Assembly: GCA_963813075.1 (NCBI GenBank) | Contig: CAWEXU010000010.1 | Span: 67,648 to 131,647 of the forward strand | Origin: Methanotrichaceae archaeon | Lineage (GTDB): Archaea; Halobacteriota; Methanosarcinia; Methanotrichales; Methanotrichaceae | DNA: 64,000 nucleotides | Direction: 5' to 3' | In this document: positions 26,371-31,272 of the stretch, one piece after another | Numbering within the stretch: position 1 is the stretch's first letter | How the letters are laid out: every line of letters starts with the position of its first letter | Translations under genes and position numbers: made by a program | The notes under the pieces: generated by a model | What the model was told of the DNA's origin: nothing | Seen by the model: the letters and a program-made list of their open reading frames with translations, nothing else | Database searches by the model: none

Positions 26371-26539
26371 TTTATAGCCCGCTGGGGCCAGGCTGCAATT
26401 CTGCTGCTCACCACCAGGGCAGTGCGGCGCAAATTGCGAGAGCGCTGGAATGCCCTAATTTATTGTCTTCCCATTCATCGGATCTCGTATTTGCTGCCAG
26501 CCGGACATAACGGCAGACGATCAGTGGCTTTCAGGCTAT

Positions 26540-26712
26540 TCAATAAGAAAAGAAAACTGATTGCGGGATATGAGCAAGGATGCAGACCGAGATCGTTCAT
26601 CCCATGCATAATGATCATAGATCTTGGTCCAAATGATGGCATAGCTATGGTGAGAATTGAATTTATAAGTGTTCATAGGGAGCACTTGGACCGGAAATTT
26701 ATTATAGAAAGA
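26540..26712 (+). pseudogene. cas2: Probable cas2 remnant (type I-G/I-U-like C-terminus)
   Basis: TEIVH...IMIIDLGPNDGIAMVRIEFISVHREHLDRKFII resembles the Cas2 C-terminus; lies directly upstream of the leader; N-terminal YDI motif absent. Confidence 0.45.
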
Positions 26713-26799
26713 TCGCTGATAAAAGGCAACGTGGTTCCAGGAGGTCCTTTGGGTCTGAAGCGCCCAGTAATACGAAAACTCCTGTGAAGACATACGCAC

Positions 26800-26960
26800 A
26801 ATTATTAAAACTATAAAGAGTATCGACGATCCGCGCTAAATCAGCGCATAGCGATATTAGATTAATAAAATCTCTTGAATCTGAGAAATATTTGGCAGTC
26901 AGGTCGATCCGCGAATAACGGCGTTATTTCGACAGCTGCAACAGCCCTAAAATGGCTGCC
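26800..26960 (+). promoter_or_regulatory. CRISPR leader
   Basis: AT-rich non-coding stretch abutting repeat 1; the repeat's ATTGAAAC 3' end implies + strand transcription. Confidence 0.65.
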
Positions 26961-27351
26961 CTATCCATTTCTGAGAAGAAGTGGCCCCATTGAAACGCAA
27001 CTTGAGATGTTCACACATTCCTTCTGCCTCTATCCATTTCTGAGAAGAAGTGGCCCCATTGAAACAATGGGTTGATTAATATCTACCCTTATCTATGCGG
27101 TCCTATCCATTTCTGAGAAGAAGTGGCCCCATTGAAACTATCGTTCTTATTTCCTGGGGCTGCCGATGTGACAACCCTATCCATTTCTGAGAAGTGGCCC
27201 CATTGAAACAAGAGTTCATTTCAGTTTGCATTTATCTCACCTTCACTATCCATTTCTGAGAAGAAGTGGCCCCATTGAAACGCCCATGAGCCCAGGCAGG
27301 GGCTCACACGTGACGGATGGAAAACCAGATATTTTAATCCGTCCATGTTAA

Positions 27352-27502
27352 GTCTGATATGGGCAGTGAAGGCTGACAAGTTTATGGGACACTTGATCCC
27401 GCGATTGAAACCAGCCAATACCCCTCGAATACGGGACTGCGTCTTAGAACGCGTATGGGAAATTATCCCCAATAAGGGAATGATCATCTGCCCATATCAG
27501 GC
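27352..27502 (+). ncRNA. Candidate IS110 bridge RNA in the left non-coding end
   Basis: 13-bp perfect closing stem CTGATATGGGCAG/CTGCCCATATCAG enclosing stem-internal-loop-hairpin units; position upstream of the IS110 recombinase. Confidence 0.65.
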
Positions 27503-27512
27503 AGAGACATAT

Positions 27513-28832
27513 ATGAAAAAACGAAGAGAAAGAGTTTGCGGTGCAGATGTCCATAAAGATCTGATCGTTGCCACAATAGCAGGCGACGAAGTGCCGCCGA
27601 TTCGAGAGAATTTTGGGACAACAAAATCCGAACTTGATAGATTTAGAAGCTGGCTTGCAGCTAACAAATGCGAACAGGTTGCATTCGAAGCTACTGGAGT
27701 CTATTGGATCCCGATTTATGATGCTCTGAGCCGAACCATAGATACCATTGTTGCCAATCCTCTGCAGATAAAGTCCATTCCAAATGACAAATCAGATTCA
27801 AAAGATTCAAAGCATATTGCAACTCTGTGTTTGAATAATCAAATCAAGAGATCTCGGGTTTTTTGCGATGAAGACCGAGAACTCAGGAACCTAACGCGAG
27901 CCAGAGCAGGATATGTCAAGACGCGAACTCAGTTCAAGAATCGGATACACAAATATCTCTCATCAAATGGCGTTAAACTCAGCTCTTCTATGGACGATAT
28001 ATTCTGCAAATCTGGAAATCATATCATAAGAGGTCTGGCTGAAGACAACCCTACCGAAGAGATCCTAAAAGGCATACCCTGCGGAAAGATCAGGAAAAAA
28101 CAAGACGAGATCAGATCAGCACTTGCCAATGAACTGAGTGATACAAATAGAATGCTGATAAGGGATGCTCTCGAAATCATGGACAATGTCGAATCCAAAA
28201 TAGAGAAGACAAGTTTTGAGGTTCTGAAAAAGATTCAAAAGAAGAGCACGGATTTGGCTATTGTTATGTCCATCCCTGGAATCGCATTTATCTCAGGTTC
28301 AGTCATTCTGTCAGAGATCGGAGACTACAGAGATTTTCAGACCCCTGACCAACTGGCGAAATGGTGTGGCCTCAATCCCGGTGAAAATGAATCTGCCGGC
28401 AAAAAGAGGAAATGCGGAATCACAAAACGCGGTTCCAAGTATATCCGAGTTGTACTTGTCGAGGCTGCCCAGACCATAGCTAATATGAAAAATACAACGC
28501 TGTCCAGATTCTACAAGAGGCTGAGCAAAAAGAAGGAGCATAATGTGGCAATAGTTGCCGTGGCCAGGAAGCTCATCTGTCTCATTTATCATCTTCTGAT
28601 CAACCAGGAGTTCTACCAAGAGGTTGGTTGCAGAAAGAGGAGAACGGGTCGAAATGAGTCCTGCCATGAACCTTCTTTGAAGGTGGAGCATCTGACAGAT
28701 AAGGTAGCTGCAATTGTGGATGCCTTTTATGGAATGAGCGAAAGTAACCGGAAGAAGGCCCTCATGCGAGTGCTTGAAGATATTTCTGTGAATAAGCCCG
28801 ACCGGAAAAGGTCATCTGATGGAGGTGGATAA
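27513..28832 (+). CDS. IS110-family DEDD recombinase/transposase
   Basis: GADVHK, FEATG and KSDSKDS (DEDD); SIPGI, ENESAGK (catalytic Ser region), RGSKYIR and AVARKL; intact ORF. Confidence 0.96.
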   Translation: MKKRRERVCGADVHKDLIVATIAGDEVPPIRENFGTTKSELDRFRSWLAANKCEQVAFEATGVYWIPIYDALSRTIDTIVANPLQIKSIPNDKSDSKDSKHIATLCLNNQIKRSRVFCDEDRELRNLTRARAGYVKTRTQFKNRIHKYLSSNGVKLSSSMDDIFCKSGNHIIRGLAEDNPTEEILKGIPCGKIRKKQDEIRSALANELSDTNRMLIRDALEIMDNVESKIEKTSFEVLKKIQKKSTDLAIVMSIPGIAFISGSVILSEIGDYRDFQTPDQLAKWCGLNPGENESAGKKRKCGITKRGSKYIRVVLVEAAQTIANMKNTTLSRFYKRLSKKKEHNVAIVAVARKLICLIYHLLINQEFYQEVGCRKRRTGRNESCHEPSLKVEHLTDKVAAIVDAFYGMSESNRKKALMRVLEDISVNKPDRKRSSDGGG

Positions 28833-29088
28833 CTCGTCTCTTGTATTTGATTTTTTTGGTTTTCCATGGGAAACTCTGTCAGGTTACTCGGATACTGGTT
28901 CTCTATCCATTTCTGAGAAGAAGTGGCCCCATTGAAACTATCCATTTCTGAGAAGAAGTGGCCCCGTGCCCGCCGGGAGAATACTATTCTAATTATTTAA
29001 AGCATGATCCAGTTATCTTTATCCGTCTATCTCATGTTCTCGTCTCATCCTACATACTGAAAATATTTGTTTTATTATTTCTCAAATC

Positions 29089-29195
29089 CAGCAACGGCTA
29101 TGCCACGATCGTATCCAAGCCTCCCCGGCGTTGAGGGGACCAGGGCATTAGCGCGGGAGGCCCGAAGGGCCGACTCGCGGCGTGCACTAAAAAAA
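29089..29195 (+). repeat. Copy 2 of the island direct repeat (structured core)
   Basis: GTATCCAAGCCTCCCCGGCGTTGAGGGGACCAGGGCATTAGCGCGGGAGGCCCGAAGGGCCGACTCGCGGCG. Confidence 0.9.
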
Positions 29196-29393
29196 TAGTC
29201 TGTGTAGATCGATTTTAGCCCTTATAACAGCCTGTAATTGAGAACTTAATTATGCTGAAATTCGAGATTTTTCGATCCCCACTCAAAGAAGTTCAGACTT
29301 TTCATCCACACCCGCCTGGAGAATCTTTCCTTTAATATATCACAATCCAAAACCATCGACGAAGCGAATACAGCCCTCAAAAAAAATACCGGA

Positions 29394-31272
29394 TCATTCC
29401 GCTAAAGTTCTCATCACCTTCGCCTCCGCCTTCACCGGCACGGGATAGAGCATCTGGGACCCTATCCTCTCCATGATCTCCTTAAGCCTTGCTGCATACT
29501 CCTCCGCTCGATCCTCCGGAACCTCCAGGATGATCTCATCGTGGATGGAGCCTATCATCCTCGCTTCCTCATCCAACAGCTTCTCATAGACCTCGGCCAT
29601 CACCAGCTTGATCAGGTCTGCGCCCGTCCCCTGGCAGGGGGTATTGTACATCTGGAACTTGCTGGCGGTGATCCCTGATCCAAAGCGCGGCCAGATCCGC
29701 CTTCTCCCGAGGACCGTTCTGGTGGCTGTCAGCGGCAGGGAGAAGAACCCCCGCACGCAGTTATGGAAGTGATGCTGTGCAGTGTAGCTCATCTGGGATA
29801 GCTGCATCTTCTGCCACTCTCTTATTCCCGGATAGCTGCAGAAGAACTTCTCCATGCGCTCTTCCGCCTCATCCAGGCAGATGAACTCGCCATAGTCGGA
29901 TAGGATGCGCCACTGCAGGGTCCTGGCCGATCCTCCGTAGATGAGCAGGAAGTTCATGGCCTTGGCCGCCTGCCTCTGCGAATCTGTCACCTCTTCCAGG
30001 GGAGTTCCGCTGATCCGGGAAGCAGTCAGGCGGTGCAGGTCGACGCCGTTTATAAAGGCCTGCTGCATCGCCTCATCCCCGGAAAGACGGGCCATTATGC
30101 GCAGCTCTATATTGGAGAAGTCGGCCTTGACATACCTCTTTCCTTCCGCCGGGCGAAACAGCCCCCTTATGGCTGGGGCATCCTCTCCCCGGCGGGGGAT
30201 CTGCTGAGCATTGGGATGACGGGAGCTGATTCGTCCGGTTGAGGCGGGAATCTGGAAGTACTGAGGATGGACCCTGCCGTCCAGAGGATGAACCCTCTCC
30301 AGCCATTTGTTCAGAAACAGCAGATTGTAGGAGAGGTGCCTGTAGCGCATAAGAGCCTCGGCGAAGGCGCAGCCTGCAGCGGCAAGGCTCCTCAAGACCT
30401 CGGCTTTGGTGCTGGCCGGTCTGTAGCCCCTCTTCTGCCAGAAATGCCATGACATCCTCCTGCCGGTCGGGATTCAGGTAATAGCAGAGCCTTTTGCCGT
30501 CATAGGAGACGGTGACAAATCCTTTCCTCTCTGCCTCATCCTGCATCCTCCCCACCAGGTCGAAGACTTCATCCTCCTCCTGGGCAAGGAGCTCCTTTGC
30601 TCCAAGGGAGTCCAGACCAATCCCCGATATCTCCATCTCCGCCAGGGCAACGGCAGCCCGAAACTCCAGGTCTGCTATCTTCTGCAGATCGTTTTTGGCT
30701 ATTAGCTCCGCCAGAATATCATGAAGTGGCAAAAGTACCATCGCATCGATGGCAGGGCCTGAATCCTTATCCAGAATGATTCCGAGATGCCTTTCCGCCA
30801 GTGAGGCCAGGCTGTGATCGACAAGCCTTTTCGTCCAGGGATTTTTTGGATTGCCGGATGGGGTCAGATAGTAGTACCCGGACCAGCACATATGGGAGGC
30901 GAGCATGAGGTCGAAGGTGCGGCAGGAGTTCAGCTTTCGACCGGCAATTGCCCTGATGAATGAGAGCACGGATTTCGAGTCGTACAGAACCTTCGTGATC
31001 CTCCCGTTCTCCAGCAGCCCGGCCAGGTCGCTGAGGACTCTCTCCATAATCACAGGTCGGTCGGCAATATCGGCTATATAAACTGAACTGTTGCTGGGAT
31101 GATTGGGAAGAGCGAGAATGATTCTCTGGATCTTGTGGCTCAGAGGATCGGGGCCGGTGGCAACGAAATTCAGGCCAAAGTATCCAGCCCGTTCTATCTC
31201 TTCTAATATGGATTCCCATTCGGGCAGAGACTGAACTGTTGTGACGGAATGGGGCGTGAGGCGATCTATCAT
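29394..31272 (-). CDS. polA: Family A DNA polymerase (degenerate 3'-5' exo domain plus polymerase domain), with one +1 frameshift at ~30438
   Basis: STGRISS..PNAQQIPR, ADFSNIELR (motif A), RQAAKAMNFLLIYG (motif B) and IHDEII (motif C); removing one base joins DVMAFL to QKRGY. Confidence 0.9.

Follow-up and report, generated by a model that had tools for sequence, protein, structure and literature searches.

To our knowledge, no guides other than bridge and seek RNAs determine both recombination partners; these RNAs are under engineering as genome-writing tools. Here we analyzed a stretch of 64,000 nucleotides (nt) from a Methanotrichaceae archaeon (contig CAWEXU010000010.1 of assembly GCA_963813075.1; hereafter the window), in which an insertion sequence (IS) of the IS110 family splits a CRISPR array. 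The element spans 27281-28873 of the + strand (1593 bp). An earlier note on this DNA had interpreted its structured left end as encoding an archaeal bridge RNA with target- and donor-binding loops. Based on our analysis it is very probable that 27353-27501 (+) is a conserved structured RNA, the predicted bridge/seek RNA of this element.

The reference for bridge RNAs of the IS110 group is IS621 (Durrant et al. 2024, PMC11208160; Hiraizumi et al. 2024, PMC11208158). According to the rule given in PMC11208160 for IS110 elements in the narrow sense, the 5' side of a loop pairs with the bottom strand, with left guides first, and the 3' side with the top strand. The seekRNA report of Siddiquee et al. 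(2024, PMC11187229) describes IS1111-type RNAs in which the top-strand complement comes first, the IS110-type ISEc21 showing the opposite order, and places the IS1111 RNA downstream of the recombinase gene apart from named exceptions such as ISMtsp17. In many IS1111 RNAs portrayed by Durrant et al. (PMC11208160) the donor-binding nucleotides lie in a multiloop. The bacterial CazIS110-1 of Caloranaerobacter azorensis, as outlined in its preprint (bioRxiv 10.1101/2025.10.25.684509), has a target loop pairing with the left-flank/left-end junction and a donor loop pairing with the right-end/right-flank junction. A preprint of 2026 presents 86 bridge-RNA models, many of them unlike IS621 (10.64898/2026.10.21.760802), and the layout described below may already be among them.

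The element encodes a recombinase of 439 amino acids (27513-28832, +) with the domains DEDD_Tnp_IS110 (PF01548, E = 1e-21) and Transposase_20 (PF02371, E = 2.1e-25), flanked by a non-coding left end of 232 nt and a right end of 41 nt. The closest solved structure is the distant IS621 recombinase (E = 1e-7); in the HMMER alignment of both proteins the stretches FEATG, KSDSKDS and ENESAG fall on the corresponding stretches of IS621. A database protein with 78% identity is named 'IS110 family RNA-guided transposase [Methanothrix sp.]' by NCBI. The nearest loci among named genomes belong to metagenome-assembled genomes of Methanothrix and Methanotrichaceae, and the recombinase was matched in 137 of the 392 genomes of the class (E <= 1e-20).

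Covariation of the left end with insertion sites

The host genome contains three copies of the element with 98-100% identity. All of them directly follow a CRISPR repeat ending in ...ATTGAAAC, all end on ...CATGGGAAAC, and their right flanks are the unrelated spacers TCTGTC, TCCGCG and CCTACT. The boundaries are ambiguous inside the shared GAAAC, C27281 being common to the repeat end and the first base of the element. In the relatives L013, L023, L025 and L037 the right junction reads GGGAAA/T or GGGAAA/G (slash at the junction); this assigns the last C at the left junction to the element, and the crossover was placed 5' of it. The crossover core would accordingly be the AA at 27279-27280 and 28872-28873. 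In the host's copies and the relatives, insertion is oriented and sequence-specific and leaves no target duplication beyond the core.

For the comparison of loops and flanks 60 further loci with 31-92% protein identity were fetched and added to the copies of the host genome and to earlier homologue loci. Eight loci with a truncated, deleted or masked left end were dropped (L014, L017, L030, L034, L043, L058, L064 and L069), and 68 left ends with 33-100% protein identity were aligned, which represent about 30 guide classes. The invariant CATG of the left end, and not the guides, served as anchor for the left junctions; right ends were placed by the donor segment alone.

Three unpaired RNA segments vary across the guide classes together with the DNA. 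In loop 1, the 3' arm (27403-27411) corresponds to the top strand of the left flank, the core and the element's first base, and the 5' arm (27376-27385) to the reverse complement of A, core and right flank (AAACTTGT). The third segment, 27455-27462 (ATGGGAAA), repeats the right end of the element together with the core (28866-28873). The two target matches proposed in the earlier note, namely of the 3' arm with the repeat end at 27274-27281 and of AGTTT in the 5' arm with the complement of AAACT at the rebuilt junction, were both recovered. Of its two proposals for ATGGGAAA, the match to the right end holds; the alternative of a hairpin stem does not, as the segment is an unpaired donor guide.

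Common strings of at least 8 nt between the 3' arm and its own left junction on the same strand were found in 40 of 61 cognate pairs and in 26 of 3414 non-cognate pairs. The reverse complement of the 5' arm shared at least 8 nt with its own right junction in 10 of 53 cognate and 12 of 2612 non-cognate pairs (at least 6 nt: 19 of 53 and 186 of 2612). For the donor segment, at least 7 nt recurred within 330 nt downstream of the gene in 53/66 cognate and 588/3716 non-cognate pairs. None of 2000 class-level shuffles reached the observed mean for any of the three segments, and the wrong-strand controls were null (814/2000 shuffles for the 3' arm, 1401/2000 for the 5' arm).

Individual relatives illustrate this. 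The 3' arm matches its own flank with CCCTAAAC in L025, GGCTAAAAC in L027, TTTATAAAAC in L033, CATAGAAAG in L045, CACAGAGTC in L056 and GTCAAAAAAC in L073, and examples for the 5' arm are AAAATATCA (L033), AAACGGCGG (L035), AAATTGCG (L037) and AAGTATTC (L054). Right-target sites with a full match are AAACTTG in L018 and AAACTTGC in L008. Arms that differ by a single base each fit their own flank (CACAAAGA in L004 versus CGCAAAGA in L052; TAGTGAAAC in L035 versus TAGTCAAAC in L037). The relatives thereby offer a natural reprogramming series: in Methanothrix, Methanosarcina and other archaea the target arms are switched base by base.

In a position-by-position matrix, one diagonal connects 27404-27407 to the left flank and another 27457-27459 to the right end; at the latter positions, whose bases vary, 100% of weighted lineages agree with the right end. 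The last base of the 3' arm tracks the first base of the element and not the right flank (87% agreement; seen directly in L037 and L025), which is reminiscent of the handshake bases reported for IS621.

Fold and expression of the left-end RNA

All helices listed in the earlier note were found at its coordinates. The outer stem consists of 13 perfect pairs between CTGATATGGGCAG (27354-27366) and CTGCCCATATCAG (27488-27500), extended by TGA/TCA (27367-69 / 27484-86). It encloses the GGCTG/CAGCC stem-loop unit (27371-27416) with its GGGA/TCCC hairpin, two small hairpins, the unpaired TATGGGAAATTA, one small hairpin and a short 3' stretch. The positions of all features are summarized below.

Features of the element, its left-end RNA and its flanks (window positions)
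Feature	Position	Strand	Basis or remark
CRISPR repeat adjoining the left side of the element, with the target ATTGAAAC as its last 8 nt (27274-27281)	27246..27281	+	repeat list, three genomic copies
Terminal left-end hairpin, TGAGCCC 27287-27293 / GGGCTCA 27300-27306	27287..27306	+	compensatory changes in relatives; outside the abundant RNA
Second hairpin, GACGGAT 27312-27318 / ATCCGTC 27337-27343	27312..27343	+	overlaps the ATG(G/A)AAAAC box and A/T-rich 27328-27338
Predicted bridge/seek RNA core, closed by the outer stem	27353..27501	+	covariation, RNA contigs, covariance model
Loop 1 closing stem GGCTG, 5' strand; pairs with 27412-27416	27371..27375	+	helix 2: 90.7% paired, 4/5 pairs compensatory
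Loop 1 5' arm ACAAGTTTAT, predicted right-target guide	27376..27385	+	covariation with right junction
Loop 1 inner hairpin GGGA/TCCC	27386..27400	+	helix 3: 94.3% paired
Loop 1 3' arm GCGATTGAAAC, predicted left-target guide	27401..27411	+	covariation; diagonals 27404-27407, 27409-27411
Loop 1 closing stem CAGCC, 3' strand	27412..27416	+	helix covariation
Two small multiloop hairpins (27422-27435, 27438-27453)	27422..27453	+	helix 4: 64.7% paired; helix 5: 100% paired
Predicted left-donor guide ATGGGAAA(T), unpaired in multiloop	27455..27463	+	equals top strand of right end and core, 28866-28873
Small hairpin after the donor guide, TCCC/GGGA	27466..27479	+	helix 6: 80.4% paired, many gaps
Right-end terminus CATGGGAAA (left donor and putative core AA, 28872-28873)	28865..28873	+	sequence, junctions
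Right flank: C28874 (last base of the split repeat), rest of the spacer, next repeat 28903-28938	28874..28938	+	sequence, repeat list

The left end (229 nt) folds at -83.4 kcal/mol (z = -5.3), and none of 200 shuffles was as good. For the core of 149 nt the z-score was -4.6, and -5.1 on the opposite strand; since both strands fold equally well, folding energy cannot tell the strand. The structure of 38 pairs was tested on 58 distinct homologous left ends. Standard pairs occupied 86.1% of the cells, compared with 30.7-42.8% in a control in which the partners were slid by 1-3 columns, and 28 of the 38 pairs showed compensatory changes. On four of five measures 0 of 500 shuffles reached the observed value. 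The excess of G.U cells (170) over A.C cells (89) favours the + strand, which is that of the recombinase gene, and the second multiloop hairpin (27438-27453) retains an invariant U.G pair. Unpaired guide segments in a fold whose helices are kept by compensatory changes and G.U pairs argue for selection on RNA.

A covariance model built from the homologue alignment (R1) matched exactly the four expected loci in the host genome. Among 151 sampled genomes of the phylum it matched 14, which belong to 10 of 63 genera, the host genome included. No Rfam family reached its threshold over 26500-29500; three weak, unrelated matches were far below the gathering score. In the relative L017, whose recombinase match is fragmentary, a natural deletion has fused the ATTGAAAC arm to ATCATCTGCCC of the outer stem; hairpins and donor guide are gone.

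Contigs of RNA libraries cover 27333-27515. In two metatranscriptome runs of one study (X1 and X2) the summed contig depth over 27333-27393, 27394-27454 and 27455-27515 was 4665, 6798 and 1007 in X1 and 2367, 2507 and 1088 in X2. By comparison, the stretch just upstream (27272-27332) had depths of 10 and 33, and elsewhere in the element the depth was 3-147. Remnants of sequencing adapters were present in contigs directly before 27353-27361 and behind 27498. Together these data hint at a discrete RNA of about 140-147 nt, which is bounded by the outer stem and excludes the two hairpins further 5'. These hairpins had been proposed as part of the structured left end, to which they do belong; they are, however, not part of the abundant RNA, since 27287-27343 lies outside of it. 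The terminal hairpin is a candidate for a role at the DNA level or in a precursor. The abundant contigs have a T at 27421, like the relatives L003 and L018, and therefore stem from a close relative of the window copy.

The earlier note had named beforehand three observations that would speak against its reading: no structure conserved among homologues, loop sequences that do not covary with insertion sites, and no transcript over 27350-27500. All three were examined; the structure is conserved, the loops covary and RNA-library contigs cover the stretch, and none of these results refuted the bridge-RNA reading.

About 20-30 nt upstream of the outer stem a box ATG(G/A)AAAAC (27316-27327 in the window) is kept in nearly all of the 68 relatives. 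A copy on a Peribacillus plasmid carries it as well (GAATGAAAATGG). It is a candidate promoter element or protein site. Behind it follows an A/T-rich stretch (27328-27338), about 25 nt upstream of the adapter-flanked contig ends, and both could be the archaeal B recognition element and TATA box (BRE/TATA) of the RNA.

Two contig joints were considered as products of a circular form and rejected. The joint 27283->28903 is a repeat-spacer-repeat read of the CRISPR array, and 27376->27483 is due to diverged relatives that have only the stem flanks in common. An element of the L004 type showed uniform depth over its whole length in the RNA runs and no short abundant RNA.

The conserved structure might be no more than a leader at the 5' end of the recombinase mRNA with a role in translation or stability control, the loop matches being by-products such as carried remnants of target DNA. 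In line with this, 12 nt without a terminator-like T run lie between the RNA end and the ATG at 27513, and other RNA contigs extend from 27440/27465 into the recombinase open reading frame (ORF). However, a leader need not track insertion sites, whereas arms and flanks co-vary strand-specifically in about 30 guide classes, and the contig depth of the core far exceeds that of the ORF in X1 and X2. We consider a mere leader very unlikely.

Every guide segment also exists as DNA, and the left-end copies of target and right end might thus be used directly by the recombinase or by host recombination, without any RNA guide. One copy (L010, see below) has even inserted into the ATTGAAAC arm of another copy, where the DNA segment itself was recognised as a target. 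Against this stand the unpaired position of the segments within a fold maintained by compensatory changes and G.U pairs, the presence of the RNA in RNA libraries, and the RNA guidance that experiments reported in PMC11208160 and PMC11187229 have established elsewhere in the IS110 family. A purely DNA-level role is even harder to credit than the leader.

Comparison with IS621 and IS1111-type guide RNAs

The predicted bridge/seek RNA shares several of the features given for IS621 in the two reports. The recombinase combines DEDD and Tnp domains, and the RNA is encoded within the left end, in the same direction as the recombinase gene and upstream of it. The unpaired arms read both target strands, overlap on the core and run 5'->3' towards it, and a segment with right-end and core sequence takes the place of the left-donor guide. 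Because both arms run 5'->3' towards the core, the RNA-target geometry is the same as that of IS621 with the target turned round.

Other features differ from IS621. The arms of loop 1 are reversed: the 3' arm carries the long guide for the left target and the 5' arm the one for the right target. The right-end guide is still located 5' of its small hairpin. Instead of two internal loops in series after a 5' stem-loop, both units are nested in a single closing stem of 13-16 bp. The donor guide lies within the multiloop, a right-donor guide was not found, and the recombinases are only distantly alike. As the host uses archaeal promoters, the sigma-70 promoter at the IS621 junction is not transferable as such.

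With IS1111-type elements, as far as these are characterized in the cited reports, the locus has in common that the top-strand complement is 5' of the bottom-strand match, if the strand of the recombinase gene is taken as top strand, and that the donor-binding nucleotides lie in a multiloop. Subterminal inverted repeats are reminiscent of that group, and so would be a short RNA more abundant than its precursor. Here the inverted repeat is formed by CATGGG at the right-end terminus and CCCATG at 27283-27288 (6 bp; approximately TCATG across relatives). In contrast to IS1111, with an RNA downstream and a long right end, the RNA is encoded upstream of the recombinase gene and the right end has 41 nt versus 232 nt of the left end. 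The inverted repeat of 5-7 bp compares with 7-17 or 11-13 bp in IS1111, and the likeness to IS1111 is judged from the layout. The element family thus mixes the left-end position of the IS110 group with an IS1111-like arm order, a donor site in the multiloop and a short subterminal repeat. This mixture bears on the orientation of the synaptic complex and on the relation of both groups.

A 3' arm composed of left flank, core and first element base also resembles CazIS110-1 by the description in its preprint. The Peribacillus plasmid relative (Bacillota, 35% identity) was inspected by eye: its arm CCGTTAG equals the left flank and TCATGGTAG equals the right end. The same layout is therefore not confined to archaea, and the attribute 'archaeal' in the earlier note fits the family of the element but not the layout. 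Model R1 scored only 11.6 bits on the Peribacillus locus. Assigning a subgroup from annotation was abandoned, as the plasmid search yielded only the generic name 'IS110 family transposase'.

The donor left end was compared in the same way. Two candidates for a left-end guide were rejected. ATGGGC of the outer stem, the reverse complement of GCCCAT at the left end, is by eye in step in L033 and L047/L048 but fails in L049, L054, L045, L042, L050 and L055 and gives no matrix diagonal. For 27480-27487 in the 3' arm of the second unit, only partial matches of 4-6 nt were seen by eye, without covariation. The terminal hairpin (27287-27306) and the subterminal repeat are candidate readers of the left half of the donor. 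Of the target- and donor-binding loops postulated in the earlier note, both target arms and the right-end donor segment were thus identified, but no left-end donor guide.

Several observations weigh against a bridge RNA. In the position matrix of the aligned relatives no RNA segment covaries with the donor left end beyond its first base, so that of the four guides in the IS621 scheme one is missing or located elsewhere. Since the arm order of loop 1 is opposite, the IS621 structure is not simply transferable. The right-target arm pairs at the CRISPR sites only with AAAC(T), that is 4-5 nt, and 15 of the 61 cognate left-junction pairs match over 6 nt or less. These weak pairs comprise apparent off-target sites (L042, L044, L054), rearranged loci and rows with a misaligned junction that were kept in the count (L050, L055, L070, L074). 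The fifth structure measure, further pair types, was not above the shuffles (275/500). The RNA evidence consists of assembled contigs, which are unable to show ends, strand or level; in X6 and X9, two runs of other studies that cover the region, there was no enrichment over the RNA, and no circle joint of right end and left end was seen in the RNA-library contigs.

CRISPR arrays as landing sites

The array in the window has repeats at 26961, 27030, 27103, 27177, 27246 and 28903 and a truncated repeat at 28938. Relatives with 76-92% protein identity and the same loop word occupy 18 distinct (AT)TGAAAC sites (20 rows with two duplicates). Nine of these are inside arrays of three unrelated repeat families (..GTGGCCCCATTGAAAC, ..ACAAGGATTGAAAC and ..GATAGGGATTGAAAC), and nine are outside of arrays. 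The host genome contains 119 sites of ATTGAAAC, namely 93 in array repeats, three in the element's own arms and 23 elsewhere. With repeats making up 93 of the 116 available sites, three landings out of three in repeats are expected from the number of sites alone. An extra attraction to CRISPR beyond the 8-nt word was considered and is not needed (repeats are 93 of all 119 sites). Because the long guide has the sequence of the 8-nt 3' end that is conserved in many repeats, CRISPR arrays are its commonest landing site.

Least credible of all is that the left-end ATTGAAAC is a captured fragment of a CRISPR repeat, with its presence in arrays due to repeat-like recombination or Cas-dependent events: all three copies are in arrays and the 8 nt are identical to the repeat end, but the match covers only 8-9 nt, fits three unrelated repeat families as well as nine non-CRISPR sites, is replaced in relatives by other words at which these relatives sit, and needs no further cause given the share of repeats among the sites.

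For the predicted bridge/seek RNA, the segments would act as guides by analogy with IS621 and the IS1111-type seekRNAs. The RNA would direct the element to the final 8 nt of CRISPR repeats, where strands would be exchanged at the core AA. The orientation of the element is always that of the repeat. As its first base restores the C, the upstream repeat stays intact after insertion, and the spacer downstream retains only GAAAC of its repeat. It can be predicted that the CRISPR RNA (crRNA) of this downstream spacer is lost, that transcription of the array reads through, and that Cas6 cuts before the left end of the element.

A more far-reaching proposal can be put forward only tentatively, and we regard it as rather doubtful. 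The element would represent a third, widespread bridge-RNA architecture, which is encoded in the left end, has the IS1111 target order and a single closing stem, and is devoid of a left-end guide. A discrete RNA of about 145 nt would be produced from integrated copies, either by an own archaeal promoter or by read-through of the array. With the repeat end that codes for the crRNA 5' handle as its 8-nt address, the element might be a parasite of arrays, splitting them, silencing the next spacer and placing its left end behind an intact repeat at the Cas6 cut site.

A mobile element could home to CRISPR arrays merely by an 8-nt guide for the conserved repeat end, and such homing might account for disrupted arrays in methanogens that are important for anaerobic digesters. 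Full-text literature searches revealed no description of IS110 elements guided to CRISPR repeats. In Sulfolobus, the CRISPR-repeat-binding protein Cbp1 is reported in PMC10883916 to bind sites within the IS110-family element ISC1229. If the guide RNA gene of ISC1229 spells part of a CRISPR repeat, this binding would be explained.

Several loci showed further peculiarities. Within the array of the window, the repeat at 27177-27209 is short by 3 nt (GAGAAGTGG versus GAGAAGAAGTGG), the truncated last repeat (28938-28965) adjoins the previous one without a spacer, and the spacer remnant after the element measures 28 nt compared with 33-38 nt of the other spacers. In the relative L010 (L010:2814-2900) the element end ...CATGGGAAAC runs straight into AGGCCAAGATCCC..., which in a second copy comes after the ATTGAAAC arm; one copy has thus landed in the guide-coding DNA of another, a case of self-targeting. 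L006 is flanked on its left by a repeat of one CRISPR family (..CCGATAGGGATTGAAAC) and on its right by repeats of another (..AACAAGGATTGAAAC), which may reflect a rearrangement between two arrays via two element copies.

Two further loci are located in the host genome. At a related element on contig C8 (L004:250-1937) a single RNA-library contig of depth 5.9 joins the flanks as CCCACAA-GG-TCACAGAT. The occupied site has AG at both junctions versus the 2 nt GG in the joined-flank contig, which is an empty-site allele with a different first core base. On contig C31 (L005:1490-1550) a lone left-end fragment of 47 nt with 89% identity directly follows CATAGAAAC without a recombinase gene and looks like a remnant or partial insertion.

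Downstream of the array, two overlapping ORFs of 353 and 399 amino acids are located at 29394-31272 of the - strand. Together they resemble a DNA polymerase of family A that includes a 3'-5' exonuclease part and is divided between two frames. Such a gene is unusual in a methanogen chromosome and may be of viral or plasmid origin.

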